The notes: generated by a model not told the origin, from the letters alone. 24,452 nt of DNA from Deltaproteobacteria bacterium (GCA_020060805.1 JAGUZM010000005.1:1-24452), one strand, 5' to 3'. Positions 2,375 to 23,027 are shown, counted from the first letter of the stretch. Made by a program: numbers and translations.

Positions 2375-2459
2375 CTTTTTTCTCCTTGTTCAGGTCAGCT
2401 ACTTTGTGGGTGTTTTCTGCGCTGGGTCAAAATACAGTGAAATAAAGGCGATGCATCTA

Positions 2460-4043: not shown

Positions 4044-4079
4044 TCTCCGCTCTCCGACTGTGGACTGCAGATTATGGGT

Positions 4080-5384: not shown

Positions 5385-5404
5385 TGTCTTCCTCCTGCCA
5401 ATTG

Positions 5405-5725
5405 CTATCTGTTCCACTCTTTCTGCGCACGCTCCAGCGCGGCAAAGACATCCTCGTAGGCATGCCCCGGAACGTATGGAGGCAGTTCCTCGATGATTCG
5501 GATATAGTAAGGCTGTTCAGATCTAAGCCCGGATTCGCCTCGCAGCCATAGGACATCCGCGCCGTGAAGTTCGTCCCTTGATCTGGCTATCTCGGCCTTC
5601 ACGTGTTTGGTGTTATACTTATCGGGTCCTGGAGTCAGGTCTTTTATGAACAATTGGGTCTTACCAATCTTCAGATCTTCGTATTTCCTAACAAACGTCT
5701 GCCATTCTCTGGCCATAATTGCCAC
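5405..5725 (-). CDS. Hypothetical 106-aa soluble protein translationally coupled to the UbiD-family gene (candidate accessory subunit)
   Basis: The ORF starts 3 nt after the UbiD stop. Its GGAGGT RBS (7-nt spacing) overlaps the UbiD stop codon. It is charged and soluble with no Cys, and I recognise no family motif. Confidence 0.65.
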   Translation of the reverse strand: MAIMAREWQTFVRKYEDLKIGKTQLFIKDLTPGPDKYNTKHVKAEIARSRDELHGADVLWLRGESGLRSEQPYYIRIIEELPPYVPGHAYEDVFAALERAQKEWNR

Positions 5726-5728
5726 CTC

Positions 5729-7165: not shown

Positions 7166-7223
7166 TTTTATTTAACCCTCCTTGAAATGATCTCACGTTC
7201 ACCTTATTCGTTATGGCTCTTCA

Positions 7224-7238
7224 GCAAGGAGTGTGCCA
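7224..7238 (-). promoter_or_regulatory. Sigma-54 (-24/-12) promoter of the module A operon
   Basis: The minus strand reads TGGCAC-ACTCC-TTGC, an exact match to the TGGCAC-N5-TTGC consensus. It lies about 60 nt upstream of the UbiD ATG at 7165, and a sigma-54 activator gene is divergent from it. Confidence 0.75.
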
Positions 7239-7434
7239 GATAACCATTAAGCTATCCCGTCTGCATCATTTGCCGCCGATGGAAAACGAAGCGAGCGCGA
7301 TTCAAAAAGAGCAGGGGCAAGCGCAGCCACGTTTTCCTGATTTTTTGACAGGAGAGCTTGAATAGAGACATGCGTTCTATGAAGCCGTTCATTGTTTCTC
7401 TTGACACTAAATGCATTGATGGTATCCTCGATTG

Positions 7435-7457
7435 TGTCCAGCAAGTGGACATGTCCA
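7435..7457. promoter_or_regulatory. Composite palindromic operator / putative activator-binding site (site A)
   Basis: The plus strand reads TGTCCA-GCAAG-TGGACATGTCCA; the reverse complement is TGGACATGTCCA-CTTGC-TGGACA. This is a 12-bp perfect palindrome plus a third half-site. The site is 197 bp upstream of the sigma-54 promoter and about 20-30 nt upstream of the activator start codon. The same architecture recurs at 12137-12159 and 22944-22966. Confidence 0.5.
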
Positions 7458-7475
7458 AGCACAACTTTTCCGAGG

Positions 7476-8912
7476 ATGATGATGATGTACACCACTGAAA
7501 GAGACCATCTCACAATAATGAAAGAGGCACTCGGCGCCTATGGGTTTTCTCGGCTGATATCCCTTGCGCTTCGTTTCTTTGTACGAAACGCGTACGAGAG
7601 CCTGGTCATTACGGACAAGGAGGGGCGGATCCGCTTCATGGACCGAGGTTCCGAGAAACTTTTCGGGCTGGGCAAGGGTGAGGCATCGGGGCTCGAAATC
7701 GAGGCTCTTCTCCCGGATACCGCACTGCCCAAGGTAATCGAGACGGGTTATCCATCCATCGGGCGAGTCCTTAACGTGAAGGGAGTGAAGAAGATCGGTT
7801 CTTCCTATCCCCTTATCAAGGACGGGGAAGTCATAGGCGCCATAGGTCGCGTGCTTTTTCACTCTCTCGAGGAGGTGGAGCGCATCAACGATAAGATGAA
7901 GATGCTCAGGAGAGAAGTACGGACTTTGCGTCAAAGGTCGCAGAGTGAGTACAGTGCAGCCTACACCTTCCAGAATATTTTGGGAAAGAGTCCCGGAATC
8001 AAGAACTGTATTGCGATGTCCAAGAAGATTGCCATCGTCCAATCCGACGTGCTGATTTCAGGCGAAAGCGGGACAGGGAAAGAGCTCTTTGCGCAAGCTA
8101 TCCACAATTTCAGCGGATCCGACAGGCCTTTTGTGCGTGTCAACTGTCCGGCTATTCCTTTTGAGCTCGCTGAATCAGAACTCTTCGGATACGAGAAGGG
8201 GGCTTTTTCGGGTGCCGACCGGGAGGGCAGGAAAGGTAAATTCGAGGCCGCCGAAAATGGGACCGTATTCCTGGATGAAATCAATTCGCTCCCCCTTTCC
8301 ATTCAAGGAAAACTTCTCCGTGTCATTCAGGAGCGAGAAGTGGAAAAGGTAGGAAGCACGAGAACGAAGAAGCTCGATATCAGGATTATTGCAGCTACCA
8401 ACACTGACTTGAAGAAGGCCGTAAGCGCCGGATCTTTCCGGGAAGACCTGTACTATCGAATTGCAAGAACAAGTATCCACATTCCTCCCCTGAGAGAACG
8501 AAAGGAGGATATCGCTATTTACGCAGAGCACTTCCTGGTTTCGATAAATAGGCGGTTTGGAACACATTTCAATAAAATCTCGGATGACGCCCTTGCTTGC
8601 CTGAAACAATACTCTTGGCCGGGAAACATTCGAGCTCTCATCAACGTCCTTGAGCAAGCATGCCTAAGAGAATGGGAAGGGGACGAGATTCCGTTGTCGG
8701 CGCTTCCAGATGATCTGACATCGGACTACCGGAGGGACGAACCGGTTCGAGGCAATCGTCTCAGAACCACTCTTGAAAAACAGGAAATGGAGTTAATTAT
8801 TCAGACTCTTAATCGGGTGAAGGGGAATAAGAGACAAGCGGCAGTTCTGCTCGGAATACCGAGATCGAGTCTCTATAACAAGTTAAATTTCTACGGCAAG
8901 CTAAAAGATTAG
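7476..8912 (+). CDS. Sigma-54-dependent transcriptional activator (PAS-like sensor, AAA+, Fis-type HTH), paralog 1
   Basis: Walker A GESGTGKELFAQAIH, the sigma-54 contact loop ELFGYEKGAFSGA, Walker B GTVFLDEI, and a C-terminal HTH (GNKRQAAVLLGIPRSSLYNKL). The start is uncertain. The track ORF begins at 7392 but would then contain the operator. Four consecutive ATGs at 7476-7487 follow GAGG, and alignment with paralog 2 (MAIIKEALGSY vs LTIMKEALGAY) supports a start in this run. Confidence 0.9.
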   Translation: MMMMYTTERDHLTIMKEALGAYGFSRLISLALRFFVRNAYESLVITDKEGRIRFMDRGSEKLFGLGKGEASGLEIEALLPDTALPKVIETGYPSIGRVLNVKGVKKIGSSYPLIKDGEVIGAIGRVLFHSLEEVERINDKMKMLRREVRTLRQRSQSEYSAAYTFQNILGKSPGIKNCIAMSKKIAIVQSDVLISGESGTGKELFAQAIHNFSGSDRPFVRVNCPAIPFELAESELFGYEKGAFSGADREGRKGKFEAAENGTVFLDEINSLPLSIQGKLLRVIQEREVEKVGSTRTKKLDIRIIAATNTDLKKAVSAGSFREDLYYRIARTSIHIPPLRERKEDIAIYAEHFLVSINRRFGTHFNKISDDALACLKQYSWPGNIRALINVLEQACLREWEGDEIPLSALPDDLTSDYRRDEPVRGNRLRTTLEKQEMELIIQTLNRVKGNKRQAAVLLGIPRSSLYNKLNFYGKLKD

Positions 8913-8924
8913 CCTGTTTTCGCA

Positions 8925-10841
8925 TCATGTCGTGGCCGCGGCGCTGCACCTTTTTACATATTCCGCGACTACTAGTGGAATCGCTATAGCGATTCCGACC
9001 GCGTCGAAAATCAAACCAGGGATGATCATGACACCCCCGCCGCAGAAAAAGATCATCCGCTTGGGCCAGGAGAGCGAGCGGAACAGATAGCCTTCAAGGC
9101 CCATTGATATCACGTAAATGCCAGCAATCGCGCTCACGGCTCCCTCCACAATGTCGAAAAGCGACCCCTGGAGCAGCAGGGCGGGGCGATATGCGAATAT
9201 GAATGGGATAATATATGCAGCAATCCCGAGTTTCATCGATTGCAGTGCGGTCTTGAACATACTTGCTCCGGCAAGCGAGGCTGCAGCATAAGCCGCCAGG
9301 CAGACCGGGGGCGTCAGAAAGGAGAGGATTGCGTAATAAAAAACGAAGAAATGCGCTATTAATCCAGGAATTCCGGAGTCGACCAGGGCGGGGGCGATGA
9401 GGACCACCATCAGCAGGTATGCGGCGGTGACTGTCATCCCCATCCCCAGGATGCTTGCACCGATGGCCGCAAACAGCAGGAGCAGAAAAACATTTCCTCC
9501 TGCCAAAGATACCAACATGTCGGAAAATATGAAACCGAGTCCGGTGATGCTCAAGACGCCGATGATAATGCCTGCCCCGGCACTCGTGACCCCTACTTCC
9601 AAAAGCCCCCTTCCAGTATCACGAAGGACCGAAAGAGCTTTGGTCCATGTCACGCCTTGATGTCTCGCAAAGCAGAGGCCCAATGCGAGAGACCCCCCGG
9701 CCGTAATGAGACCGGAGCTCTCCGGCTCCCAGCCAAAGAAGAAAAGCAAGCCGATCAGCACTAGGAATGGCAGAACAAATGTCCAGCCTTTCAACACGAC
9801 CCTCCAGAAATTTGGGATCTGCTCAGATGGCATGCCTTTGAGATCGAGCTTAGCCGCCCTTAAGTCAACCTGAATGAACACCGCAAGGTAGTAGAGAGTC
9901 GCTGGGATAATCGCCGCGATGGCGATCTCCGAGTAGGGGATGTTAAGAAATGTGGCCATCAGGAAGGCCGCCGCCCCCATGATGGGAGGCATGATCTGAC
10001 CGCCGGTAGAAGCGACAGCCTCGACGGCGCCGGCGAAATAGGGGGGGTAGCCTGATCTTTTCATCAGTGGGATCGTAAACACCCCCGTCGTCACCACATT
10101 GGCTACGGCGCTCCCCGAAATGGAGCCAAACAGGCTCGATGCGATGACCGCCACCTTGGCCGGACCACCCCTGTATCTCCCCATCAAAGAAAAGGCGATG
10201 TCTATGAAAACCTTCCCGCCGCCTATAACCGAAAGCACTTGTCCAAACAACACGAAAACCAGCACTATGGTCGCCGATACATTCAAGGGCACACCGAATA
10301 TCCCTTGTTCGTCCAGATAGAGAAAGGTGACCAAAGAGGTGAAGGGTATACTTCTCATCCCCAAGATGCCCGGGAAATGAGACGAAAAGAGCGCGTAGAA
10401 TAGGAAAGGCAACATGATAATCACAAAGGGCAAACCGACGACTCTTCTGGATGACTCAAGGACCAGTAGCACTGCAATGAGGCCGAGTAAGACACGTTCC
10501 TGTGTAATTAGACCCGACTCAACAGCAAGGATCTCGTAATTCACGCTGACATAGAGTCCCGACATGATCGCGAGAATGGCAAAACAAAAATCATACCACG
10601 GCAGCCGATTTAATGCCTTGCCTTTCCTAATGGGGAATAGAAGAAACGAAGCTGCTATCACTAAACCGAAAACTACCCCCAAATATTGCTGAGTAAACAA
10701 GGGAATTTTCACGAATTCGCTAAGATGCAGCATGAAGACGATGCCGCTTATAGGGATGAGGGCGAGAACGAAGTCGGTCAAACCCCCAGCCCATCCTTTG
10801 AGTCTCCGAAAAGAAGTCTCCACGCCCTTCCTTTCACTCAT
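8925..10841 (-). CDS. TAXI-type TRAP transporter fused permease (DctQ-DctM fusion, 4TM/12TM type), copy 1
   Basis: 638-aa polytopic membrane protein immediately downstream (51-nt gap) of a TAXI-like binding protein gene. Paralogous to 16360-18249, for example FGSISGSAVANVVTTGVFTIPLMKRSGY vs FGMMTGSQTANVAAVGTLTIPLMIRSGY. GAGGTGGAG RBS. Confidence 0.9.
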   Translation of the reverse strand: MSERKGVETSFRRLKGWAGGLTDFVLALIPISGIVFMLHLSEFVKIPLFTQQYLGVVFGLVIAASFLLFPIRKGKALNRLPWYDFCFAILAIMSGLYVSVNYEILAVESGLITQERVLLGLIAVLLVLESSRRVVGLPFVIIMLPFLFYALFSSHFPGILGMRSIPFTSLVTFLYLDEQGIFGVPLNVSATIVLVFVLFGQVLSVIGGGKVFIDIAFSLMGRYRGGPAKVAVIASSLFGSISGSAVANVVTTGVFTIPLMKRSGYPPYFAGAVEAVASTGGQIMPPIMGAAAFLMATFLNIPYSEIAIAAIIPATLYYLAVFIQVDLRAAKLDLKGMPSEQIPNFWRVVLKGWTFVLPFLVLIGLLFFFGWEPESSGLITAGGSLALGLCFARHQGVTWTKALSVLRDTGRGLLEVGVTSAGAGIIIGVLSITGLGFIFSDMLVSLAGGNVFLLLLFAAIGASILGMGMTVTAAYLLMVVLIAPALVDSGIPGLIAHFFVFYYAILSFLTPPVCLAAYAAASLAGASMFKTALQSMKLGIAAYIIPFIFAYRPALLLQGSLFDIVEGAVSAIAGIYVISMGLEGYLFRSLSWPKRMIFFCGGGVMIIPGLIFDAVGIAIAIPLVVAEYVKRCSAAATT

Positions 10842-10892
10842 ATCTCCACCTCTTTGCGTCGGTGACTACGTAAGCGATAACCTTATTGTTTG

Positions 10893-11921
10893 CTATTTCT
10901 GTTCCTTCTTCAGGAGTTCCTCCTGAATGTTTGCCATTTCTTTGGTCCAGACGCCCTTTTCTTTGAAAAGCCTCACCGCCCCGGGGTGATAGGGAACAAT
11001 GAACTGGTTGGTAAGAAAGATCTCGGGCTTCCACGCTTTCAATCCAGCATGGATTTTCCCAAGCTCCTGATGATGATCCCAGAGGATCTTCATCACGTCG
11101 TACACCTTATCGTCAGGGTAGTTTGACCTGCAAATCAGGTAGATATCGTACCCCCACAAATAGCCTTCCTTTTCAATTCCGGTGTTCCCCGGACCAGGGG
11201 CGACTTTGACAGGATAGCCCGGGAAGAATTGTCGGGTACGGGCCAAAGCCTCCTGGGAAGTATCGAATTGAAGAAGGCGAGCCCCCTTCTTCGCATGGAG
11301 TTCATCGATGATAGGCATGCCCAGCGCTGCCGCCCCGCTCGCATCAGCCCGTCCGTCGATTACCACCGCCACGGCCTCCTGGACCGAATTGACCGGCACA
11401 GGTGTCACTTCGCTCCACTTGACTCCACCATTAGCCAGATACGCCTCTATTTGCAGTTGAAGAGATGGTACAGGCATGTTGCCGCCGACCCGCTTTCCCT
11501 TAAGGTCAGAATAGGAGAAGATACCGGAATCTTTCGCCACGACCAGACATCCAAGGTTATTCACGCTTATGGCAACCAAACGGACCGGAAAACCTTTACC
11601 CCCCGACAGCTTGGAGTAGACCGATTCGCCCAGCCAACTCTTCTCTGCATCCCACATATTGAGAACGCCCAGATCAATGCTGTCCCGTTCCATGAACGGG
11701 AGCCATGCCACAGGCCCTTTCATAGGTTTTACTGTGGGGACAACATCAGAGTGATCGGAAACTACTTTTGCAACCGCAGTTCCTACTACGTTGAAAAAGG
11801 AACCGACCGGATGTGTCCCGATGCTCATGAATTCTTTTGCGGGTGCCGACTCTGCTCCAAGTACCCAAGCAAGACAAAGAAGGGTAGCCATTATGATCAA
11901 GAACTTCACATTCCTTTTCAT
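10893..11921 (-). CDS. TAXI-family TRAP solute-binding protein, copy 1
   Basis: Signal peptide (MKRNVKFLIIMATLLCLAWVLGAESAPA) and a periplasmic-binding-protein-sized 342-aa ORF. The N-terminal IGTHPVGSFFNVVGTAVAKVV resembles the TAXI G-x-G-G-x-Y-x-x-G region. Sits directly upstream of a fused TRAP permease. AAGGAG RBS. Confidence 0.8.
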   Translation of the reverse strand: MKRNVKFLIIMATLLCLAWVLGAESAPAKEFMSIGTHPVGSFFNVVGTAVAKVVSDHSDVVPTVKPMKGPVAWLPFMERDSIDLGVLNMWDAEKSWLGESVYSKLSGGKGFPVRLVAISVNNLGCLVVAKDSGIFSYSDLKGKRVGGNMPVPSLQLQIEAYLANGGVKWSEVTPVPVNSVQEAVAVVIDGRADASGAAALGMPIIDELHAKKGARLLQFDTSQEALARTRQFFPGYPVKVAPGPGNTGIEKEGYLWGYDIYLICRSNYPDDKVYDVMKILWDHHQELGKIHAGLKAWKPEIFLTNQFIVPYHPGAVRLFKEKGVWTKEMANIQEELLKKEQK

Positions 11922-11999
11922 GGTCGTGCTCCTTTCCAGTTTAAGGTGAAAACCTATCTCCCCGGGATTCGGTCTTCCTCAGATCTTCGCTTGAACAAA

Positions 12000-12014
12000 G
12001 CAAAATACTTGCCA
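12000..12014 (-). promoter_or_regulatory. Sigma-54 (-24/-12) promoter-like element for the TAXI operon (copy 1)
   Basis: The minus strand reads TGGCAA-GTATT-TTGC with correct GG/GC spacing, about 80 nt upstream of the ATG at 11921. Confidence 0.6.
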
Positions 12015-12136
12015 CTCCGCGGCTTATCAAAGGCATTCGTCACGAATAGGCAGGGAAACTGTTTAAAAACAGCCATGAGATAGAAAATGCCCTCTTCAAA
12101 GCTTGCATTTCTGTATCTGAAGCGGACGCATGCCTT

Positions 12137-12159
12137 TGGACATGTCCATGCATTGGACA
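12137..12159. promoter_or_regulatory. Composite palindromic operator / putative activator-binding site (site B)
   Basis: TGGACATGTCCA-TGCAT-TGGACA. The 12-mer is identical to site A, with the same 5-nt spacer length and third half-site. It lies about 125-145 bp upstream of the 12000-12014 promoter. Confidence 0.5.
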
Positions 12160-12336
12160 CCTGTTTTCGAATCGGTCTCGCAATAAGCCCACCCGGCAGA
12201 ACCGAACTTCACCACGACTTCGTTGGTATTGGTCCTTTGTCCAGTTGCTTTTCAGAATCGTCTCAACGCTTCGTCAATTGCTAGTCCGCGCGCCCTCTTG
12301 CCTTAGAACAGACATATTCTGAAGAGATCGTCGGCT

Positions 12337-12633
12337 CAACTTTGACGAATTCGTAAAAAGTCGAAAATGCGCTTTTTCAGTCATCCCGGTGAAAACCGGG
12401 ATCCAGTGATTTCAAGAACTTCCGGATGCCGGATCAAGTCCGGCATGACGGCCTCAGGACTTTTTACGAGATTGTCAACTTTGATGCTCCCGTAAAAAGT
12501 CCGGCGCGTCCATTCCGTTCATGGTTCGATACCTCACCACGAACGGAATATCATACACTTACGGCTGTTTAGTCCGTTCCCCCTGAGGTATCGAAGGGTG
12601 AACGGGACTTTTTACGGGGCCTCAACTTTGATG
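12337..12633. repeat. Two tandem MITE-like / REP-like non-coding repeat elements
   Basis: The direct repeat CAACTTTGA(C/T)G occurs at 12337-12347, 12476-12486 and 12623-12633. Each interval is bounded by inverted repeats: CGTAAAAAGTC (12352-12362, 12491-12501) and GACTTTTTACG (12458-12468, 12606-12616). Internal hairpins: CCCGGT-GAAA-ACCGGG (12385-12400); ATGCCGGA-TCAAG-TCCGGCAT (12426-12446); ATTCCGTTC/GAACGGAAT (12512-12520 / 12541-12549); and a 22-nt imperfect inverted repeat 12515-12536 / 12584-12605 (19 of 22 positions pair). Confidence 0.6.
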
Positions 12634-12671
12634 TTTTGCGCTTTTTTATATGAAAATTACTCCATGTCTTT

Positions 12672-12686
12672 AGGCATGGTCTTTGC
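12672..12686 (+). promoter_or_regulatory. Possible sigma-54 (-24/-12) promoter for ubiX
   Basis: The plus strand reads AGGCAT-GGTCT-TTGC with correct GG-N10-GC spacing, 197 nt upstream of the ubiX ATG. This is weaker than the other three elements and has a long leader. Confidence 0.4.
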
Positions 12687-12882
12687 TGAACGGTTACATG
12701 TGGTGGAGCGGAGATGTGGATATCATCTCACTCTCACGCCGCTCATGATAGAATCGCAATTGATCAGCGAATGGCAAAGAAACTCGACCTACATGGTTGG
12801 ATACATTGCTTAAGCACGAGCACTTTAGACGCGGTCATAAAGCTATTGACGCTACACCAAAACGGTTTCCAAGGAGAATATA

Positions 12883-13470
12883 ATGGGAAAACGGATCGTG
12901 ATCGGATTATCCGGAGCAAGCGGGATGATATATGGCATACAGTTATTAAAGGTACTTAAGAACATTGAAATTGAAACGCACCTCATTATGTCAGAATCCG
13001 GCATGAGGAACCTTCAAATCGAGACTTCCTTTACTCCTTCTGAGGTTGCTGCTATGGCTGATTTCACATATGACAACAGAGATGTAGGCGCAGCTCTTGC
13101 GAGTGGATCATTTTTGACAGAAGGAATGGTGATTGCTCCATGCACCATAAAGAGTTTGTCTGGGATCGCCAATTCTTATTGTGAAAATCTGCTAGTAAGA
13201 GCTGCAGACGTCACACTTAAAGAAAAGAGAAAACTGGTTCTGCTGGTAAGAGAAACCCCTTTGCACATAGGACATCTGAGGTTAATGACTAGGGCCGCAG
13301 AAATGGGTGCGCATATATTGCCCCCTGTGCCCGCTTTCTATCACCGGCCAAAAACGATTGATGATTTGATCAATCAGACTGTGGGAAAGGTACTTGATTT
13401 TCTGGAGATTAGGCACGACCTATTTACTAGATGGGGGGAAGAGTCTCAAAGTGGGAAATCAAGACAATAA
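12883..13470 (+). CDS. ubiX: UbiX-type flavin prenyltransferase (prFMN synthase)
   Basis: 195 aa. Characteristic N-terminus MGKRIVIGLSGASGMIYGIQLLKVL, plus VIAPCTIKSLSGIANSY and LLVRETPLHIGHLRLM. AGGAGA RBS. Confidence 0.9.
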   Translation: MGKRIVIGLSGASGMIYGIQLLKVLKNIEIETHLIMSESGMRNLQIETSFTPSEVAAMADFTYDNRDVGAALASGSFLTEGMVIAPCTIKSLSGIANSYCENLLVRAADVTLKEKRKLVLLVRETPLHIGHLRLMTRAAEMGAHILPPVPAFYHRPKTIDDLINQTVGKVLDFLEIRHDLFTRWGEESQSGKSRQ

Positions 13471-13533
13471 TCTTGTAAAAGGAAATCAGGAGCAGCTTCG
13501 ACGATGATGGGGTTTTGAGTCTTAAAAAAATGT

Positions 13534-14523
13534 CTATAGATGTAATAACCTTTTCGCGTTTCCCTCGAAAATCATTTTCTTGTGATCCTCGGGGATGGTA
13601 ATCGTATTTATTGCATCGATCGTTAGCCGCAGGTACCTGGCTCCACACTCGCAGTCATATGGCATATCTGTTCCAAATAGCATATGCTCAGATCCAAAGA
13701 AGGCATATCCGCACATAAGACTGTTTGGTGCTCCATAGAGGGCGGTGTCGCCATAAAACCTGCGAAAATACTCTATTGGAGGTTTGTTGAGATGTTTTTT
13801 GAATTTCGCTCCGAGGCAAACGTCTGCAAAATCCTGACCGCCTGCCATACGATCCGCAAAGTAGGGTAGCATGCCCCCACAGTGATGGGTTATGATCTTC
13901 AAGTTGGGATATTTCTCCATGATCCCGCTAAAAACAAGCCTTGTCATTGCCGAAGTTGTTTCATAGGGCCAGCCAAACATGCTGAAGATCCAGTACTTGG
14001 AATGATCTTCACTCCTGTAATCGGAGAAGCTTCGATCCCTTTGAGGGTGAATCCAGATTGGAAGGTCGTATTGTGACATTTTGTCGTAAAGCGGGAGAAA
14101 CTCTTTTTGATCTATCGGTTTGTCGTTTGTGGGCGTATATATCTGCACACCCTTAAAGTTTAGTTGAGTGATAGCTCTATCGAGTTCCTTTAAAGCGGCA
14201 TCGATATCGTTCATAGGAAGGCAGGCTACTGCGGCTACAAAGCGCCGAGGATATTTGGCTACCAGCTCTGCCATTTCATCATTTGCGAGTTTTGCGAGCT
14301 CAACTGCTTCCTTATCTCCGACGACGGATTCGATGGGAGGAGAAGCCAGGGTCAAAACCTGTCTGAGCCCGTCGAACTCATCAACAATGCCAAACCATCT
14401 GTCCAAATCCCACAGGGTGGGGACCGCGTCATCCACCCCGCGCAGGTAATAGTCACTTCGCGCTTTTCGATCGAGAGCATTCTTATAGTTGATGGGTAGA
14501 ATGTGGGCGTAGATATCTATCAT
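13534..14523 (-). CDS. Amidohydrolase_2 (ACMSD / non-oxidative aromatic decarboxylase-hydratase) family protein
   Basis: The N-terminal MIDIYAHILP aligns with the ACMSD-type IDIHSHILP metal motif. It also has WIHPQ, ITHHCGG and FGTDMPYD motifs. The start is ambiguous. The track ORF uses a TTG at 14589 with no RBS; the ATG at 14523 gives a family-typical 329 aa, but its GGAG is 12-13 nt away. Confidence 0.8.
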   Translation of the reverse strand: MIDIYAHILPINYKNALDRKARSDYYLRGVDDAVPTLWDLDRWFGIVDEFDGLRQVLTLASPPIESVVGDKEAVELAKLANDEMAELVAKYPRRFVAAVACLPMNDIDAALKELDRAITQLNFKGVQIYTPTNDKPIDQKEFLPLYDKMSQYDLPIWIHPQRDRSFSDYRSEDHSKYWIFSMFGWPYETTSAMTRLVFSGIMEKYPNLKIITHHCGGMLPYFADRMAGGQDFADVCLGAKFKKHLNKPPIEYFRRFYGDTALYGAPNSLMCGYAFFGSEHMLFGTDMPYDCECGARYLRLTIDAINTITIPEDHKKMIFEGNAKRLLHL

Positions 14524-14625
14524 AAATTTCGGAATCTCCGCTTGCTTTTTCAATCCGAGGCTTAATTCAGCTGCATTTCTTCGAGGCAATCATGAGCACG
14601 GTGCGGCTCCGTTCTACATGTATAA

Positions 14626-15759: not shown

Positions 15760-15820
15760 TCCATTGTGAGAGACTGTACTGTAGAGAGACTTCTTTGTCG
15801 CTGTTCACGCCATTGCCTGG

Positions 15821-16309
15821 TCACGGTCCCGCCTTGATTCTGAACTCCTCGTCCATCTCGACCCAGCCCGGACCGAATCTCTGGTCATAAAAAGCGGCAA
15901 AACGATCGTACCATCGGGCCCATGTGCTTTTCCCCGCCTGCAGCGCCTCAAGGACGTCATTCAGGTAAGCGGCAATATTCTCGAGTTTTTCCTTTGGTAT
16001 GAAAAAGGCGGCACCCTGCTTGAATGACTTCACCGTGTCCTGAACGGTTAAAGAGTGGGCAGTGAGCATTACGGGGATCACCCTCCTGCGCTTTGCAACC
16101 TCAAGAAGCGAATACCCGTCGACTCCCATGATGTCGAGCACGGCGATGTCAAAGTACTCGTTCTCGAGAAGTTTCTTCGCCTTTTCAAATGTCTCGGCCT
16201 TCACCACGTCGCACATCGATAGGAGGGACTCCAGTGTGGCCAGAATATCGGGTTCATCATCGACCACGAGAACTCTTTTGTATTTCAACACGTCCTTTCT
16301 CCTGTTCAC
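15821..16309 (-). CDS. Stand-alone response-regulator receiver (REC) protein with Trp-rich C-terminal tail (paralog 2)
   Basis: VVDDEPD, AVLDIMG, MLTAH and FFIPKEK (conserved Lys present). The tail is STWARWYDR...FGPGWVEMDEEF. GTG start preceded by GAGGA. Alignable along its full length with the 1883-2374 product. Confidence 0.85.
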   Translation of the reverse strand: MNRRKDVLKYKRVLVVDDEPDILATLESLLSMCDVVKAETFEKAKKLLENEYFDIAVLDIMGVDGYSLLEVAKRRRVIPVMLTAHSLTVQDTVKSFKQGAAFFIPKEKLENIAAYLNDVLEALQAGKSTWARWYDRFAAFYDQRFGPGWVEMDEEFRIKAGP

Positions 16310-16359
16310 TTATCCTCATTTTTGTCTGCCATTTGGACTTCATCCCTGCCGTGAGCCCC

Positions 16360-18249
16360 CTAGCTCTTGCTTTCTACCGGATACGAGCTGCCCCTAGACA
16401 TCCGTGAACGGATATTCCGCCATAACAGAATGGCTGCTATGGTCAACAGCCCGAGCATGTTCAATACTATGTTATGAGGGATAAGGCAAATGCTTGCGCA
16501 TAGGACGAGAAGCCTTTCAGGCAGCGTCAGCTTGGAAGTGGCGAAACCCAGGAACGACATGGATATTCCACCGATGGCGACGAACGCAGTGAAAATGCGG
16601 TAAATTACATAAACGACAGATCCCTTCAGCATGATCTCCGGCGAATAGACGAAGAGAAAGGGCACGATGAAAGTCGGCGCAGAAATCAGGAATGCCAGAT
16701 TGGTAGTTTTCAGAGGATCTGTCCTGGCAATACCCGCTGCCGCAAAGGAGCACGGTGCTGAAGGGGGGGTGATGTTGCCGAGAACCCCGAAGTGGAAAAT
16801 GAACAAGTGCGCTGCCATGGGATGTATCCCACTCTGAACGAGTGCAGGCGCGGCAAGGATTGCCAGGATGAGATAAGCCGTCACGGGGGGCAGAGGCAGC
16901 CCGATAATTACCGAGGCGACCATGGTCAGGAGGAGCAGGACGATTTTGTTCCCTCCTGCTACATAAAGCAGTATCTCTGTAAAGCGGAGTCCCAGCCCTG
17001 TGAGATTGATCACTCCCTCGATGATTCCGGCCGCTGCGCACGACATAATCACGATCAATGCCGTTTTCGGGCCGTTTTCAAGGGCCAGGATCAACTTTGA
17101 GAAGGACATCCTTGTCGCCTTTCGGAGTAGGCTGATGGCGAGCAGTGCAATGATTGCCCAAAACCCGGCCTTCTTGGTGCTCACATTCTCGACAATCAGC
17201 AGGTAGAAGATGACCAGGAGCGGAAAAAAGAGATGACCATACTGGCTCAGCAGTGAACGGATCTTCGGCAGTTCAGATTTGGGCGCCTTTACGAGCCCGA
17301 GTTTCTTGCCCTGGATCTGTATGAACGTGAATACGGTCATGTAGAAAAGGAGGCCGGGTACCAGTGCGGCGCGCATGACGTCCAGGTAGCTTCCGCCGAT
17401 GATCTCAGGGATGATGAAGGCCGCTGCCCCCATCACAGGGGGAACCAACATTCCCCCTGTTGAAGAAAGCGCCTCAATGGCTGCGGCCATTATGGGCTTG
17501 TATCCTGAGCGGATCATAAGGGGAATGGTCAAGGTGCCTACAGCCGCAACGTTTGCCGTCTGGCTTCCAGTCATCATGCCGAAAAGGCAGCTCCCCAGGA
17601 CGGCTGCTTTAGCGGCCCCGCCCCTGAACCTCCCAAAAATGCCGTAGCCAATGTTCGTAAAGGCGTGAGTACCACCCGTCTGTTCGAGGAAGGCACCAAA
17701 AATGAGGAAAATGATGATCACGGTCGCGGACACGCTCAAAGCAACCCCCAATATTCCCTCGGTGCTGAGGAACATGTGCGAAACCACCCTCTCGAACGAA
17801 TACCCGCTGTGAGCGAACATGGAAGGCAAGTACTTTCCGAACGCTACATAGGCAAGGCTCAACAAAACCAAAACGCACATGGTGAGCCCCATGATGCGAC
17901 GCGTCGCCTCTGTGACGAGCACGATCGCCGTTGTTCCCACAATGCAATCCAAAATGTTCGGCGAGCCCTCCCTTGATGCGATGTTCTCATACTCCAGCAG
18001 AACATAAAGGGAGATGAATGCACTCAAAAAAACCAGAACGTAGTCTATCGCCAAGGCGGTACCAGTGTGTCTGCTACGGAATGTTTTCTGCAGGGGCAAG
18101 AGAAGGAATACCAGGATGAGCCCGAACCCGAGATGGATAGATCTCTGCTGCATTGCAGGAAGCTGCTGTATCCCAGCAGTGTAGATCTGGAATAAAGACA
18201 TCGCGATTGCAATGATCCCTATGACCCTTTTTGAAGTAATCCATCTCAT
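16360..18249 (-). CDS. TAXI-type TRAP transporter fused permease, copy 2
   Basis: 629-aa polytopic membrane protein paralogous to 8925-10841. GGAG RBS at 6 nt. Confidence 0.9.
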   Translation of the reverse strand: MRWITSKRVIGIIAIAMSLFQIYTAGIQQLPAMQQRSIHLGFGLILVFLLLPLQKTFRSRHTGTALAIDYVLVFLSAFISLYVLLEYENIASREGSPNILDCIVGTTAIVLVTEATRRIMGLTMCVLVLLSLAYVAFGKYLPSMFAHSGYSFERVVSHMFLSTEGILGVALSVSATVIIIFLIFGAFLEQTGGTHAFTNIGYGIFGRFRGGAAKAAVLGSCLFGMMTGSQTANVAAVGTLTIPLMIRSGYKPIMAAAIEALSSTGGMLVPPVMGAAAFIIPEIIGGSYLDVMRAALVPGLLFYMTVFTFIQIQGKKLGLVKAPKSELPKIRSLLSQYGHLFFPLLVIFYLLIVENVSTKKAGFWAIIALLAISLLRKATRMSFSKLILALENGPKTALIVIMSCAAAGIIEGVINLTGLGLRFTEILLYVAGGNKIVLLLLTMVASVIIGLPLPPVTAYLILAILAAPALVQSGIHPMAAHLFIFHFGVLGNITPPSAPCSFAAAGIARTDPLKTTNLAFLISAPTFIVPFLFVYSPEIMLKGSVVYVIYRIFTAFVAIGGISMSFLGFATSKLTLPERLLVLCASICLIPHNIVLNMLGLLTIAAILLWRNIRSRMSRGSSYPVESKS

Positions 18250-18485
18250 GCTTTACTCCAATTCCGGCAGGATTTTGTCATTACTGCGGCAACTGAGCGT
18301 CATGGTTGTCGTTTTGCTGACCGGAGCCTGTCTCATCAAGACCGGCAAATGGAACTGCATGCCTCCACATTTTCAGCGGGACAGTTAGTCCAAGCCGGGT
18401 TGGCCGACAGTCCTATTCGGTCGCCTCTTGAGAAGGGCATTCGATAATGTGCATCAGGCGACTCTCTGCAAAAAGGTCATGGAGG

Positions 18486-19451
18486 CTACTTGAAAATACC
18501 GGCTTCTTTGAAGTACTTTTCAGCCCCTTTGTGAAATGGGAAGGCGATGGTGCGTTTTACGCTTTGAGGGTTCATCTCGTTCGCAACCGGGTGGATCTCA
18601 ATCAGCTCTTTTCTGTTTTCAAAAAGCGCTTTGGTCATTTTGTAAACGAGATCCTCCTTCACCCCTTCGTGGGTTTCGAGCGGCACGCCGAATACGAGAA
18701 TTGGCGTAGGCTGATCGACGCCGCTGTAAGATCCCGGTTTCAGAGTGTCATGATAGAGATATGGGTTTTCCGGCAGGATCTTCTTCAGCACTTCCTCGTT
18801 GGCTGGGATCACACGGATTTCCTTTCGAATGCTGAGTTCCTTCATGGCCGGAATCGGGTATGCGCCGGAGATAAACCCAGCATCGATGCTCTCGTCCTGC
18901 AAGCCCTCGACCACCTCCTTGTAGCCTAGCCACAGTTGCTTGTACATGTCTTTGGTGACTCCGTGGGCCGTGATCAAATCCAGAGCTAACTGTGATGTTC
19001 CGCTACCGGCCGCACCAAGGGCCACCCTCTTGCCCTTCAGATCGGCAATGGTCTTTATGGAGGAATTCTTGAGCACTACCAGGTTCATCCCCGCGCCGTA
19101 TAGAAAGGTGATGGCCCGGAGTCCATCGTAAGCCTTTTCAAATGGCGGCTTTCCTGCATAAGCCAAATAGAGAAGCTTCGAGTCACTTATCCCAAAGGCG
19201 GCCTGCCCCTTTGATTGTTTCTCGTCGAGATACTTGATCGTGGCGGAAGACCCGCCTGTCCCTTCCACCATCATCTGCACTTCGGGTACGTGTTTGTTCA
19301 GGACCTTGGCAATCGCTCCTCCAAGAAAGTAGGCTGTTCCTCCAGAGCCCGGCGTGTAAATGGGAATGACCTCTTTTGCAATGGAAACTGGAGTTTGACA
19401 AAGAACCGCCATCCCAAAAACTGCCATAAGGACCATTTCAAACTTTTTCAT
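18486..19451 (-). CDS. TAXI-family TRAP solute-binding protein, copy 2
   Basis: Canonical TAXI N-terminal region IYTPGSGGTAYFLGGAIAKVLNKHVPEVQMMVEGTGGSSATIKYL. Signal peptide MKKFEMVLMAVFGMAVLCQTPVSIA. The ATG at 19451 follows AGGGGGG; the track ORF (to 19493) would overlap the ligase gene. Confidence 0.85.
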   Translation of the reverse strand: MKKFEMVLMAVFGMAVLCQTPVSIAKEVIPIYTPGSGGTAYFLGGAIAKVLNKHVPEVQMMVEGTGGSSATIKYLDEKQSKGQAAFGISDSKLLYLAYAGKPPFEKAYDGLRAITFLYGAGMNLVVLKNSSIKTIADLKGKRVALGAAGSGTSQLALDLITAHGVTKDMYKQLWLGYKEVVEGLQDESIDAGFISGAYPIPAMKELSIRKEIRVIPANEEVLKKILPENPYLYHDTLKPGSYSGVDQPTPILVFGVPLETHEGVKEDLVYKMTKALFENRKELIEIHPVANEMNPQSVKRTIAFPFHKGAEKYFKEAGIFK

Positions 19452-19485
19452 AAAGCCCCCCTTTCTCTTAACGGGTTCGTTGCAA

Positions 19486-21057
19486 TCAAACATACTTGCG
19501 CCTCATCTCCTTCTTCTCCAGTTTGCCGGTCGGATTCCTCAGTACTTCATCGAAGATGATGCGCCTCGGTCTCTTGTATCTCGCAATTTTTCTTTCAAAA
19601 AAGGCGGTCAACTCTTTCTTCGTTTCACTTGAATCAGGGATATTCGACTTGAGTTTAATTACCGCCGTGACCATCTCACCTAGCCTGTCATCGGGGAGCC
19701 CTATTACAGCCACATCGTGAACTTTGGGATGAGTTTGTATCAGCTCTTCGACTTCAGTGGGGTACACGTTCTCGCCCCCACAGATAATCACGTCCTTTTT
19801 CCTATCGACGATCCAATAAAACCCCTCCGAATCCCTTCTCGCCAAGTCGCCGGTATATAGCCAGCCGTCCCTTATCGTTCTTGCGGTCAGTTCCGGATTT
19901 TTGTAATACTCTTTCATGACGCCGTTCCCTCGGACAACGATTTCTCCGACATCTCCCCGCCGTGTATCGTTGCCGGAATCATCCACCAGTTTCACCTCCC
20001 AGTTGAATCCCGGCTTGCCGATCGAGCCCACTTTGTGCTCGTTCTCGATCCCGAGGTGAAGACATTGAGGCCCAGTTCCCTCAGTGAGCCCATAGTTCTC
20101 ATCAAAGATCATGTTAGGGAATTCCTTTTTCCACCTCGTGATCAGACTCGGCGGAACCGGTTGCGCGCCGAGCAAAAGGAGTCGCCATTCACTCAAATCG
20201 TAATCTGATTTCTTCAGTGTCCCCGCTTCCAGTTCCCCCAGTATGTCCTGGATCCATGGAACGAGGAGCATGCAAACAGATCCTCGCTCCTCCGATAGAA
20301 CCCGAAAAATCGCTTCCGGAGTAATTTTGTCTCCCTGTATTATGGCCGATTCACCCATGATGAGACTGGAAAGCCAGTGAATAAAATCCCCGGTGTGGTA
20401 GAGAGGCTTCAGAATCACGAATATGTCGCCGCTCCTTCGAAGCTGATGTACCACCTCGATGATCGCAGCGTGCTCCATGTTGTTGTGGCTGAGCAGAATG
20501 GGTTTCGGCTTCCCTGTAGTTCCCGATGTGAAATAGAGACCGCAGGGGTCACTAGGCTCAAGGCGTGTAAAAAATGGTTCCGGGGAGGATCCAGCCATAA
20601 TCGCGGGGAGACATTCCATGCCCCTTGCGGCACTCGGCCCGTTGACGAATATGACGAAATCACGTTTCTTCTCGAGTTCCGCCTCGATTACTCTGGGGGC
20701 GAATTTCTCGTCGAGGATCATTGCCGCCGGTTCGGCTACGTCCATGCAGTGGCGGAAATCATCCGATGTGAACCGAAAGTTGAGAGGAACGACAACTGCG
20801 CCTGTACGAATGATCCCAAAGTACGCCGCCACCCAGGAGATGGAATTCATCATCCAATGAATCACCTTATCTCCCTTCCTTACGCCTCTTCCTGTGAGGG
20901 AGTTGGCGATCCTGTTGACCATCTCATTCAACTCTCTCCAGGTGACCTCAACTCGCAGGTTTTTACTCGGCAGCCGTTCAACGAGGGCGATCTTGTCAGA
21001 ATGCATCCTCGCGTTCCTTGCCAGCATTTCTGAGATATCCATGACGCCTATTACCAT
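19486..21057 (-). CDS. AMP-forming acyl/aryl-CoA ligase (classical ANL adenylate-forming superfamily)
   Basis: AMP-binding signature YFTSGTTGKPKPILLSH, then GYGLTE-like NYGLTEGTG, and WLYTGDLARRDSEGFYWIVDRKKDVIICGGENVYPTEVE. The start could be 21057 or 21042 (MDISEMLARNA); neither has an ideal RBS. Confidence 0.85.
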   Translation of the reverse strand: MVIGVMDISEMLARNARMHSDKIALVERLPSKNLRVEVTWRELNEMVNRIANSLTGRGVRKGDKVIHWMMNSISWVAAYFGIIRTGAVVVPLNFRFTSDDFRHCMDVAEPAAMILDEKFAPRVIEAELEKKRDFVIFVNGPSAARGMECLPAIMAGSSPEPFFTRLEPSDPCGLYFTSGTTGKPKPILLSHNNMEHAAIIEVVHQLRRSGDIFVILKPLYHTGDFIHWLSSLIMGESAIIQGDKITPEAIFRVLSEERGSVCMLLVPWIQDILGELEAGTLKKSDYDLSEWRLLLLGAQPVPPSLITRWKKEFPNMIFDENYGLTEGTGPQCLHLGIENEHKVGSIGKPGFNWEVKLVDDSGNDTRRGDVGEIVVRGNGVMKEYYKNPELTARTIRDGWLYTGDLARRDSEGFYWIVDRKKDVIICGGENVYPTEVEELIQTHPKVHDVAVIGLPDDRLGEMVTAVIKLKSNIPDSSETKKELTAFFERKIARYKRPRRIIFDEVLRNPTGKLEKKEMRRKYV

Positions 21058-21121
21058 CCTTCCGGCACTAAGGGTTGAGGAAGAAGGCCAGAACTATGAC
21101 GTTTTACCGGAACATACTAAA

Positions 21122-21162
21122 GGCCGCCAACCTTAACTAATCACGGCTGAAGGAAGGCGGCC
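21122..21162 (-). other. Intercistronic stem-loop between the UbiD paralog 2 gene and the CoA ligase gene
   Basis: GGCCGCC (21122-21128) and GGCGGCC (21156-21162) form a perfect 7-bp GC-rich stem, with inner CCTT/AAGG pairing. On the transcribed strand only TTT follows, so this is not a canonical terminator. Confidence 0.3.
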
Positions 21163-21173
21163 GGGAGCAAGAA

Positions 21174-22691
21174 CTACCTTCCCGTTTTGGCGAGCGACCG
21201 AGCATATTCGGTCTGCATGCCACGAAAATCGGCAAGCTGCTTCTCGGAGAACCATTTTTTCAGGTCAACTTTGTCCACAGGATAATGGGGTCGAGTGAAG
21301 TAGTGCGCGGTCTTGAAGGGCTTTGTTGCGTCGAATGCCATCCCGCCTTCCCATCCGCCAAGGCCACTCTGCCTGACTTCTTTTGGCTGGGCTGCTATGC
21401 CGCGCCCCCCGCGTGGAAGCTTAATAATATCTTTGTCGGGGTCGACACGGCTCTCCAGAGCCCACATCACGTCGTCGGCATTGTAGATGTCTACATCCTC
21501 GTCAACGGCAATCGCCATCCTGATACCAGGCGCATCCGCAAGCGCCGAAAAGAGAATGTTCCTCTGAAATCCTTCCTCCTGCGATCGCTCCTTGCGCACC
21601 TGGAAAATGACTCCACTCCCCCACTTGAAGTAATCGGGGATGTTGACATCCACACATATGCCCGGGGCAATCCTTTCTGCCATCTCGAAAAACGTTGCCT
21701 CCCTGAGCAGATCGAAACACGCGTATTCCAGCCCTGCCGCAAGGGGGGTGTAGAAGATGGGACGTTCCTTCCTCATGGTGACAGCGGTGACTTGGAGTTT
21801 ACGCACCTTCCATGTGGTGCCCATATATCCTACCCATTCCGGGAAAAAATTAGTCTCCCCCTGGCGCTGCACTCCCAGTTTTTCTGCTTCTTCGCTTTCC
21901 CACACATTCTGGGAGGTCGGCTCTAGATAACCTTCCAGCACTATCTCGGCATCCGCGATGGCATACGCATCAACGGTCCTCGCTTTCACCAGTTTGACCG
22001 GCGCCCCCTGAAATCCACCGGCGATTCCCAGTTCATCGCTTCCGTGAGGCACGATCGTTCTCACGTTCCAGGTGCCCGCCACGATGCCGACTGCAGGGCT
22101 GGGGTTCATATTCACGGTTATTGGAATCCTCTCGTCACGATGGGTCTTGAAGGCCATCATCCCAATGTGAGTGATTTGGGCAGTTGATATCGAAGCCCAG
22201 TCTTTACCCCTGAAATGAATCCGATTGAATGAGATGTTCGTATCGCCTTTTCTGTAGACATCGCACAGGAGCTGATTTCCGCACCCGATGATCCTGCCGG
22301 CATCGAATTCCGTGTGTTTGATGATCGGAAGCATTGTTGGTACATCGATGTCCTTGGTGATTACCACTTCCTGGCAAGGCGCGTCTTTCACTATCTGGGG
22401 AGGTATCGGCTCTCTCAACGCCTCCACAAACTTGAATTTAAGCTTGTTCGGGTCGCTCACTCCGTAGAGGTCGGCAATCGGTTCTCGCCTTCCGAAAATA
22501 TTGCCGAGGTCGCGAAAACCGGGGTATCCCTTTATTTTGTCGAAAAGGAGTATAGGTCCCTTCTCCAACGCCTTTTGAATCCCGGCGATTTCGTAGATCG
22601 GATCTACCTCTTCCTTCACATGGACCACCTGGCCTTTCTTATCCAGGTAAGCCAACGCCCCTCTTATGGACGTCACATCTCTTTTTTCCAT
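21174..22691 (-). CDS. UbiD-family (de)carboxylase, divergent paralog 2
   Basis: UbiD-like N-terminus (IRGALAYLDKKGQVVHVKEEVDPIYEIAGI) and overall length. The canonical GPFGE loop is replaced by ETNFFPEWVGYMG. The start is set at Met17 of the track ORF (ATG 22691), which follows AGGAGG at 5 nt. Confidence 0.85.
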   Translation of the reverse strand: MEKRDVTSIRGALAYLDKKGQVVHVKEEVDPIYEIAGIQKALEKGPILLFDKIKGYPGFRDLGNIFGRREPIADLYGVSDPNKLKFKFVEALREPIPPQIVKDAPCQEVVITKDIDVPTMLPIIKHTEFDAGRIIGCGNQLLCDVYRKGDTNISFNRIHFRGKDWASISTAQITHIGMMAFKTHRDERIPITVNMNPSPAVGIVAGTWNVRTIVPHGSDELGIAGGFQGAPVKLVKARTVDAYAIADAEIVLEGYLEPTSQNVWESEEAEKLGVQRQGETNFFPEWVGYMGTTWKVRKLQVTAVTMRKERPIFYTPLAAGLEYACFDLLREATFFEMAERIAPGICVDVNIPDYFKWGSGVIFQVRKERSQEEGFQRNILFSALADAPGIRMAIAVDEDVDIYNADDVMWALESRVDPDKDIIKLPRGGRGIAAQPKEVRQSGLGGWEGGMAFDATKPFKTAHYFTRPHYPVDKVDLKKWFSEKQLADFRGMQTEYARSLAKTGR

Positions 22692-22775
22692 TCTTCCCTC
22701 CTGATGATCGCAATTTCTTTGTTGGCTCAGTTCACTCAAAGTTGTCTACGCTCGATTTCTTATAACTGCCTATTA

Positions 22776-22790
22776 GCAAAGAACGTGCCT
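22776..22790 (-). promoter_or_regulatory. Sigma-54 (-24/-12) promoter of the module B operon
   Basis: The minus strand reads AGGCAC-GTTCT-TTGC with correct GG/GC spacing, about 85 nt upstream of the ATG at 22691. A sigma-54 activator gene is divergent from it. Confidence 0.65.
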
Positions 22791-22943
22791 CAATCTACTT
22801 GCCTGATTTTACACTATAAAATAAATGTACAACCAAAAAAAGTCTGCATATCCTCTCAAAGATGTCCATTTTGCAGACATCGTTCTAGATAATATCTTCT
22901 GATTCTATGAACTTACTCAAATATTGAGATCATGACCTAAAAA

Positions 22944-22966
22944 GAGACATGTCTTTTTGCTGGACA
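22944..22966. promoter_or_regulatory. Composite operator / putative activator-binding site (site C)
   Basis: GAGACATGTCTT-TTTGC-TGGACA matches the reverse complement of site A at 18 of 23 positions. Shared parts are the GACATGTC core, the TTGC spacer end and the TGGACA half-site. A partial inverted copy, TGTCCA-TTTTGCA-GACAT, lies at 22863-22880. Confidence 0.45.
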
Positions 22967-23027
22967 ACCTCATTCATCTGAACCATATTGGGGCAAGAAG
23001 ATTAGATTTTTGCTTTTGGAGCCGCGC

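Follow-up and report, generated by a model that had tools for sequence, protein, structure and literature searches.

The question raised by this locus is whether two modules with genes for UbiD-type decarboxylases (ubiD1 and ubiD2), the TAXI-TRAP transporters encoded with them and the flavin prenyltransferase gene ubiX are controlled together by sigma-54 (RpoN). The stretch we analysed, called the window throughout, is 24,452 nucleotides long (Deltaproteobacteria bacterium, GCA_020060805.1, JAGUZM010000005.1:1-24452); it comprises 24,452 of the 24,759 bases of contig C560 in a metagenome-assembled genome (MAG) of 5.03 Mb and 627 contigs. The original prediction, made from the sequence alone, placed the whole island under RpoN control on the basis of four -24/-12 elements found before ubiD1, the first TAXI-TRAP operon, ubiX and ubiD2. 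In our analysis this view held for the elements before ubiD1, the first TAXI-TRAP operon and ubiD2 (P_ubiD1, P_TAXI1 and P_ubiD2), which are supported by matrix scores, an operator unique in the genome, divergently encoded enhancer-binding proteins (EBPs), the presence of rpoN and conservation in orthologous loci, whereas for ubiX such control is plausible only. Each of these three elements is very probably a real EBP-responsive promoter, and it seems quite likely that the island consists of sigma-54-dependent units switched by two paralogous EBPs via a shared operator.

Four -24/-12 elements and their scores

Classical sigma-54 promoters have the consensus TGGCAC-N5-TTGCW and work with NtrC-type enhancers. 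All four strings were present in the sequence where they had been predicted and on the predicted strands. P_ubiD1 (TGGCACACTCCTTGCT, 7223-7238, minus strand) has no mismatch to this consensus, and its predicted transcription start site is at about 7212, 47 nt before the ATG (7165) of ubiD1 (5729-7165, minus strand). P_TAXI1 (TGGCAAGTATTTTGCT, 11999-12014, minus strand) has one mismatch and a predicted start at about 11988, 67 nt before the ATG (11921) of the gene for the solute-binding protein (SBP). P_ubiD2 (AGGCACGTTCTTTGCT, 22775-22790, minus strand), also with one mismatch, would start transcription at about 22764, leaving 73 nt to the ATG (22691) of ubiD2. The candidate element P_ubiX (AGGCATGGTCTTTGCT, 12672-12687, plus strand) has two mismatches, and from its predicted start at about 12698 there would be a leader of 185 nt before ubiX (12883-13470, plus strand). 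Two of the sites have A instead of T ahead of the GG, and in all four the GG and the GC are exactly 10 nt apart. The original prediction gave a distance of 60-200 nt to the start codon; with corrected starts, the GC element lies 59 nt (ubiD1), 79 nt (TAXI-1), 197 nt (ubiX) and 85 nt (ubiD2) away. The ubiD2 start is the ATG at 22691, which has an AGGAGGG ribosome-binding site, the mechanical call of the open reading frame (TTG 22739) being too long.

Bare GG-N10-GC was uninformative, with 209 occurrences in the window and 205 expected. The longer string GGCA-N6-TTGC occurred five times where 1.02 were expected, a count that was reached in one of 100 shuffles, and four of these five matches lie in intergenic DNA, which amounts to 2.4 kb or 9.8% of the window (binomial estimate, P ~4e-4). 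All four intergenic elements point to the gene next to them. Across the 5 Mb of the genome there are only 14 gene-oriented intergenic sites with at most one mismatch to TGGCAC-N5-TTGCW, and three of the 14 are on the 24.8-kb contig C560.

The elements were then scored with a 24-column sigma-54 matrix, trained iteratively on the non-coding sites of all contigs except C560. The scores were 18.5 bits for ubiD1, 17.1 bits for TAXI-1, 19.6 bits for ubiX and 18.5 bits for ubiD2, corresponding to ranks 32, 49, 21 and 31 among the 58,816 GG-N10-GC sites of the genome. Under a first-order Markov null, 3.1 sites of at least 16 bits and 1.0 of at least 18 bits were expected in 643 kb of intergenic DNA, and 35 and 21 were observed. 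At the rate of 3.1 sites per 643 kb, only about 0.01 chance sites of at least 16 bits should fall into the 2.4 kb of intergenic DNA in the window, where four were observed. The matrix was validated outside C560: nine of 26 non-coding matches of at least 18 bits were located no more than 3 kb from an EBP gene (35%, against 3.2% expected), and none of the five coding matches of the same strength was within this distance. In a negative control, no match of at least 10 bits was found in 35 kb of sequence upstream of 29 ubiX homologues. The matrix under-scores variant -24 boxes; TGGCAG in locus L029 obtained 12.1 bits and TGGTAC in L073 and L041 fell below the 6-bit threshold, and such variants were spotted by eye.

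The matches could in principle be chance strings or sigma-54 binding sites that are not promoters, the operons being transcribed from sigma-70 promoters. The chance level of bare GG-N10-GC would fit this explanation, sigma-54 sites that are intragenic and non-productive have been described for E. coli, and a sigma-70-like sequence, TTGATA-17-TATTTT, overlaps P_TAXI1. However, a scan of positions 5000-24452 gave 20 sigma-70-like matches against 17.4 expected, that is, the chance level (the terminator scan was also at chance level), and four intergenic sites of at least 16 bits, all correctly oriented and 59-197 nt from a start codon, are far more than chance provides. In addition, two of the elements are divergent to EBP genes, three are accompanied by the genome-unique operator and two are conserved across orthologues, as described below. 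We therefore regard this explanation as very improbable.

A shared operator and two paralogous activators

The motif TGTC-N9-GACA was found four times in the window (7435-7451, 12143-12159, 22863-22879 and 22950-22966) against 0.34 expected; no shuffle reached four, and all the copies are in the regulatory regions under study. Three of the four extend to a 21-bp composite, GACATGTC-N9-GACA, or TGTCCA-N7-GACATGTC when the opposite strand is read. The 5-Mb genome has three occurrences of this 21-bp operator, none of them outside contig C560; they are in the ubiD1, TAXI-1 and ubiD2 regions. Operator A (TGTCCAGCAAGTGGACATGTC, 7435-7455) lies with its centre 206 bp from the GG of P_ubiD1, on the upstream side, and 20 bp separate its end from the ATG of EBP1. 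The mechanical call for EBP1 (TTG 7392) was too long; alignment with EBP2 and the gene call P0242 place the true start at ATG 7476, and operator A is therefore intergenic, not coding. For P_TAXI1, the distance from the GG upstream to the centre of operator T (GACATGTCCATGCATTGGACA, 12139-12159) is 138 bp. At P_ubiD2 there are two copies: operator B1 (TGTCCATTTTGCAGACA, 22863-22879), centred 82 bp from the GG in the upstream direction, and operator B2 (GACATGTCTTTTTGCTGGACA, 22946-22966), about 168 bp upstream, whose end is 61 bp away from the EBP2 ATG. P_ubiD1, P_TAXI1 and P_ubiD2 thus each have an activator site upstream that is close enough for looping, and P_ubiX has none.

The operators also have a position relative to the EBP genes. 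The best sigma-70-like match in positions 5000-24452 (TTGACA-16-TATCCT with TG, 10/12, 7401-7428, plus strand) is the putative promoter of EBP1, and operator A starts just downstream of it. Upstream of EBP2 there is a sigma-70-like TGGACA-17-CATATT at 22961-22989, and operator B2 overlaps its -35 hexamer (22961-22966). Since the operators sit on or next to these sequences, the EBPs probably repress their own genes. Between B1 and P_ubiD2, a conserved AT-rich box (TTTTATAGTGTAAAATCA, 22804-22821, minus strand) at about -40 to -57 of the promoter may be a bend site of the integration host factor (IHF) type, as it loosely resembles WATCAA-N4-TTR; genes of the HU/IHF family are present in the genome.

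The prediction that two sigma-54 activators are encoded divergently was borne out. EBP1 (7476-8912, plus strand) is divergent to ubiD1 and EBP2 (23028-24452, plus strand; the gene extends past the window end) is divergent to ubiD2. Both have a PAS-AAA+-HTH (helix-turn-helix) architecture with the Pfam domains Sigma54_activat, AAA_lid_14 and HTH_8 (PF00158 match, E = 4e-65 for EBP1 and 8e-66 for EBP2), and they are 48% identical over their full length. The loop that contacts sigma-54 is GAFTGA in EBP2 and GAFSGA in EBP1 (residues ~270-276, window 8160-8200). When the N-terminal 170 residues were searched as a profile of ten family members, the CitA cytoplasmic PAS (E = 3.7e-7) and the FixL PAS (1.7e-3) were found; an AlphaFold2 model of the sensor domain has a PAS-like beta-sheet followed by a long linker helix, with low confidence (predicted local distance difference test, pLDDT, 62). 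The best NCBIfam model was NF041552 (PrdR), which covers residues 31-474 of EBP1, and we rejected the assignment of the two proteins as PrdR equivalogs, because their scores of 428 bits (EBP1) and 404 bits (EBP2) are far below the cut-off of 795. The genome encodes about 30 EBPs and has a single, complete rpoN on contig C161, with the AID, CBD and DBD Pfam domains.

Conservation was examined in 77 fetched loci. The 21-bp motif was present in 13 of them, and all 13 carry an EBP of the EBP1/EBP2 family or are pieces of C560. In loci L032, L033 and L034, EBP2 orthologues (87-89% identical) are divergent to ubiD2 orthologues, and P_ubiD2 and both operators are kept. A three-way comparison of the window with L032 and L033 gave 88% identity for the sigma-54 core, 78% for the AT-rich box, 80% for operator B2 and 67% for B1, compared with 34-50% in the spacers and 55% when the entire intergenic region is taken. 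More distant loci have variants of the same arrangement: in L029 and L074 (ubiD2 75% identical) the promoter is TGGCAGGACCATTGCA, of the variant form TGGCAG-N5-TTGCA, with two or three operators, the proximal one 82-83 bp from the GG, and in L073 we found TGGTAC-N5-GTGC with an operator at 86 bp. The spacing of operator B1 is thus conserved at 82-86 bp in L029, L032, L033 and L073; this phasing and the conserved AT-rich box would fit a face-of-helix requirement at P_ubiD2. In L031, with a ubiD2 homologue of 52% identity, a 21-bit site is situated 55 nt ahead of the start.

The ubiD1 side has its own counterparts. L036 encodes an EBP 70% identical to EBP1 and has the module A gene order of ubiD, small protein, PaaK-like ligase and flavoprotein, with a perfect-consensus TGGCACAGTCGTTGCT 51 nt before ubiD; the EBP gene is preceded, at 28 bp, by an operator, TGTCCAAAAAATGTACATGTCC. 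The arrangement in L038, from a Desulfobacteraceae MAG, is similar to that at P_ubiD1, with TGGCATAACAATTGCT and TGTCCAATAATTAAACATGTCC, and operator A is conserved in L036, L038 and L073. Scans of genome and metagenome contig collections with UbiD1 returned only homologues of 33-42% identity, too diverged for footprinting. A UbiD1 orthologue of 71% identity was found among relatives (G022/L003), and we saw no obvious -24/-12 element in the 478 bp upstream of it. The island is rare in the order: UbiD2 was found in 4 and SBP1 in 3 of 209 genomes.

Two of these loci have neighbours of a different kind. In L073 (257-5573) an EBP of the same family faces an operon for a xanthine-dehydrogenase-type molybdoenzyme (FAD_binding_5, Fer2, MoCoBD), with a ubiD2 orthologue and a gene for a CoA transferase after it; from this layout it follows that the EBP family probably also controls other aromatic or heteroaromatic pathways. 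In L033 (11604-15091), from a groundwater metagenome, genes for IstB-like, phage replication protein O-like, single-stranded DNA-binding and HTH_17 proteins lie beside the EBP2/ubiD2 orthologues, and this mobile-element neighbourhood is consistent with lateral spread of the module.

The elements and their statistics, the domains of the proteins and the conservation were observed directly. RpoN dependence, binding to the operator, the identity of the effector, autoregulation and the extents of the operons are what we infer from the DNA, and the circuit would operate as follows. EBP1 and EBP2, each with a PAS sensor, an AAA+ ATPase and a Fis-type HTH, would bind the composite palindrome TGTCCA-N7-GACATGTC with its core TGTC-N9-GACA, at copies 138-206 bp upstream of the -24 element and, at P_ubiD2, at an extra proximal copy at 82 bp. 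The PAS domain would sense an effector, presumably an aromatic dicarboxylate substrate or its CoA ester. Effector binding would lead to oligomerisation, and the EBP hexamer would loop the DNA to reach the RNA polymerase holoenzyme (E-sigma54) at the promoter, possibly helped by a bend at the AT-rich box; ATP hydrolysis by the EBP would then open the closed complex. P_ubiD1 would serve the first four genes of module A, from ubiD1 to the flavoprotein gene, with the receiver gene and dctQM as probable further members of the unit; P_TAXI1 the first TAXI-TRAP transporter; P_ubiD2 the genes for UbiD2, the ligase and the second TAXI system, and likely also those for the receiver protein, the old yellow enzyme (OYE) and the amidohydrolase; and P_ubiX, less certainly, the gene of the prenylated flavin mononucleotide (prFMN) synthase. 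As the operators of the two paralogues are nearly identical, cross-talk between them is likely, and the presence of such operators at both ubiD regions and at TAXI-1 predicts a common regulon.

Relatives of EBP1 and EBP2 form hundreds of clusters of 50-90% identity in metagenomes of anaerobes. A broader reading, which we put forward tentatively and give slightly less than an even chance, is that the two proteins and these relatives make up a widespread family of PAS-type sigma-54 activators, not described so far, that is specialised in prFMN/UbiD decarboxylase operons for the anaerobic degradation of aromatic dicarboxylates (of the phthalate-isomer type). Such a family would use the 21-bp operator with a fixed helical phasing of 82-86 bp, and cross-talk of the two paralogues of this island would bring two substrate modules, a transporter and cofactor synthesis under coordinated control. 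If this is true, the family could supply isomer-specific sensors for anaerobic phthalate metabolism.

Several observations weigh against sigma-54 control of the island. The matrix is built on predicted, not mapped, sites and on crude ORF calls, and the GAFSGA loop of EBP1 departs from the canonical GAFTGA. Homologues of SBP1 in the order are found in other gene contexts and have no sigma-54 sites, and no orthologous context was found for P_TAXI1. In L023 (9131-16096) and L026 (9260-16018), the ubiD2-ligase-TAXI orthologues are 79-85% identical and are preceded by a GntR/FCD regulator on the same strand; we saw no sigma-54 site at the ubiD2 orthologues of these two loci. Because such close orthologues use a GntR regulator, sigma-54 control is not intrinsic to the pathway, and the catabolic module has been wired to different regulators by lineage.

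The composition of the contig belongs to the same side. C560 has a GC content of 50.3% (55.7% for the MAG), the second lowest among the 158 contigs of at least 10 kb, and its tetranucleotide correlation is the fourth lowest; the contamination of the MAG is 7.9%. The contig may be a horizontally acquired island or a piece of a co-binned organism. Because it is a compositional outlier, the rpoN gene, which is on another contig, may derive from a different population, but two EBP genes on C560 itself still imply a sigma-54-containing host. We also noticed that C560 clusters compositionally with other low-GC contigs (C476, C296, C134 and C614).

The ubiX element and the extent of the transcripts

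The original prediction had ubiX co-regulated with both decarboxylases. The score of P_ubiX, 19.6 bits, is the highest of the four, and its core is identical in 19 of 21 positions to the ubiD2-type promoter of L033, with a resemblance that runs from about -60 to -8. An upstream box, TTTTATA-TG-AAAAT, is common to P_ubiX and P_ubiD2, and the local alignments of P_ubiX with L032 and L033 were better than those of 300 out of 300 shuffles. In L038 (457-9617) a single EBP-controlled operon comprises ubiD, TAXI SBP, permease, ligase, amidohydrolase_2, receiver protein and, as the last gene, ubiX; coupling of prFMN synthesis to the decarboxylase has therefore been selected elsewhere.

On the other hand, no TGTC-N9-GACA operator lies within 500 bp of P_ubiX, the nearest being operator T at 513 bp; a tandem block of miniature inverted-repeat transposable element (MITE)-like repeats, 297 bp long (12337-12633), separates the two, and the similarity of P_ubiX to P_ubiD2 ends about 10 bp from the 3' edge of this block. 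In addition, a sigma-54 site was found before none of the 29 ubiX homologues in the order, and the predicted leader is long (185 nt). These findings would suit a different reading, in which only ubiD1, TAXI-1 and ubiD2 are controlled by EBPs and sigma-54 and the ubiX element is a copy of a promoter that was cut off from its enhancer by the repeat insertion; its activity would by now be low or nil, or transcription would come from another promoter, and ubiX would not be tightly co-regulated. EBPs are, however, able to act across several hundred bp, no other promoter for ubiX was detected in the sigma-70-like scan, and the top matrix score and the place of ubiX within the L038 operon also speak against a loss of control. 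We consider such an uncoupling of ubiX doubtful and lean, with modest confidence, toward P_ubiX being a real EBP-responsive promoter.

The repeat block is made of two tandem MITE-like units, each CAACTTTGAYG...CGTAAAAAGTC...hairpin...GACTTTTTACG. One more unit is located in intergenic DNA at C134:22758-22845, on another low-GC contig, and the family is small, its 11-mer occurring ten times in the genome, four of these in the window. Rfam gave no match in the window, the ubiX leader included, and this leader folded no better than shuffled sequences and contained no convincing small ORF.

The genes around these elements are arranged as follows. Module A (44-7165, minus strand), downstream of P_ubiD1, comprises ubiD1 and the genes for the 106-aa protein, the PaaK-like ligase, a flavin adenine dinucleotide (FAD) flavoprotein and a receiver protein, and dctQM; the 106-aa protein weakly resembles the gamma subunit of phenylphosphate carboxylase. 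TAXI-TRAP operon 1 (8925-11921, minus strand) consists of the SBP gene (10893-11921) and a gene for a fused permease (8925-10841), and a non-coding stretch of 961 bp separates it from ubiX. Module B (13534-22691, minus strand) contains ubiD2 and the genes for an AMP-forming ligase, a TAXI SBP, a permease, a receiver protein, an OYE flavoenzyme and an amidohydrolase_2 protein. L023, L026 and L074 show synteny with its ubiD-ligase-SBP-permease core. We also saw that the amidohydrolase and the orphan receiver protein recur with UbiD in L038.

Module B had been proposed to be one transcript of roughly 9 kb with seven genes. Its seven co-directional genes extend over 9.16 kb, and none of the gaps between them contained a sigma-54 site of at least 9 bits or a sigma-70-like or terminator consensus. 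The sequence is consistent with a single 9-kb, seven-gene transcript from P_ubiD2. Directly after ubiD2, in a gap of 116 nt, there is a GC-rich hairpin with a weak U tract (21122-21162, minus strand; z = -2.0), which the terminator scan missed; it may be an attenuator or an mRNA stabiliser that raises the level of the decarboxylase relative to the products of the downstream genes. It is possible, although in our view rather unlikely, that module B is not one 9-kb mRNA and that P_ubiD2 gives mainly a short, abundant ubiD2 transcript, ended or stabilised at this hairpin, the remaining genes depending for their expression on read-through, on processing or on an internal promoter, so far unrecognised, in one of the two longer gaps. 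Apart from the hairpin, this would agree with the gap lengths, since the ubiD-ligase gap is 21 nt in orthologous loci against 116 nt here and the SBP-permease gap is 22-30 nt against 236 nt here; a passage in PMC13040137 also regards a high amount of decarboxylase as needed, phthaloyl-CoA being unstable. On the opposite side, both gaps are free of consensus sequences of the terminator, sigma-70-like and sigma-54 types, the folding of the 236-nt gap does not surpass that of shuffled sequences, this gap has no convincing small ORF, and the seven genes are co-directional, with partners that are syntenic elsewhere.

Relation to known systems

The regulation of anaerobic, UbiD/prFMN-dependent degradation of aromatic acids of the phthalate type is essentially uncharacterised. 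Our literature search found no paper that combines sigma-54 with UbiD or phthalate terms. The mechanism proposed here is conventional, a standard circuit of bacterial enhancer-binding proteins (bEBPs) and sigma-54 and not a new mechanism. With predicted starts for four promoters, a 21-bp operator, two candidate sensor-activators and natural variants, including the GntR-regulated orthologues, its regulatory logic is directly testable, and the set of promoter, operator and sensor could yield parts for biosensors.

In gene content the island resembles the clusters for anaerobic degradation of phthalate and isophthalate, in which a UbiD-like decarboxylase is combined with UbiX and with a CoA ligase or transferase, as in the IPCL cluster of S. 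aromaticivorans (PMC9516798; review, PMC13040137). Module A, with its PaaK-like ligase, small protein and UbiD-like decarboxylase, and module B, with its AMP-forming ligase, UbiD-like decarboxylase and TAXI-TRAP transporter, are likened to these clusters by gene content, as is the nearby ubiX. Sigma-54 regulation of such clusters is not mentioned in the regulation-related passages of the two papers.

The promoters agree with classical sigma-54/NtrC promoters in the 10-nt distance between GG and GC, in a palindromic enhancer with a 17-bp periodicity located 80-210 bp upstream, in an AT-rich candidate bend site in between and in a divergent activator gene whose own promoter overlaps the enhancer. 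They differ from them in the A that replaces T before the GG at two sites, and the operator differs from NtrC-type enhancers in being a composite of three half-sites (TGTC-N9-GACA and then TGTC) that is specific to the EBP1/EBP2 family. EBP1 and EBP2 have the same domain order as PAS-AAA+-HTH activators of the PrdR/RocR/AcoR type and, like them, are without a receiver domain, although the genes they would regulate are different and the PrdR cut-off is not reached.

The closest described system is that of RedR1 and RedR2 in Aromatoleum anaerobium, where two paralogous bEBPs control three sigma-54 promoters for anaerobic degradation of resorcinol (PMC10084136). The differences between RedR1 and RedR2 are essentially confined to the N-terminal tail, whereas EBP1 and EBP2 are only 48% identical over the full length; the targets here are UbiD/prFMN decarboxylases, CoA ligases and TAXI-TRAP transporters, and the operator was defined in silico. 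Both systems have a pair of paralogous EBPs and several sigma-54 promoters within one cluster for anaerobic aromatic metabolism, and interplay between the two paralogues at common sites is probable in this island as well.

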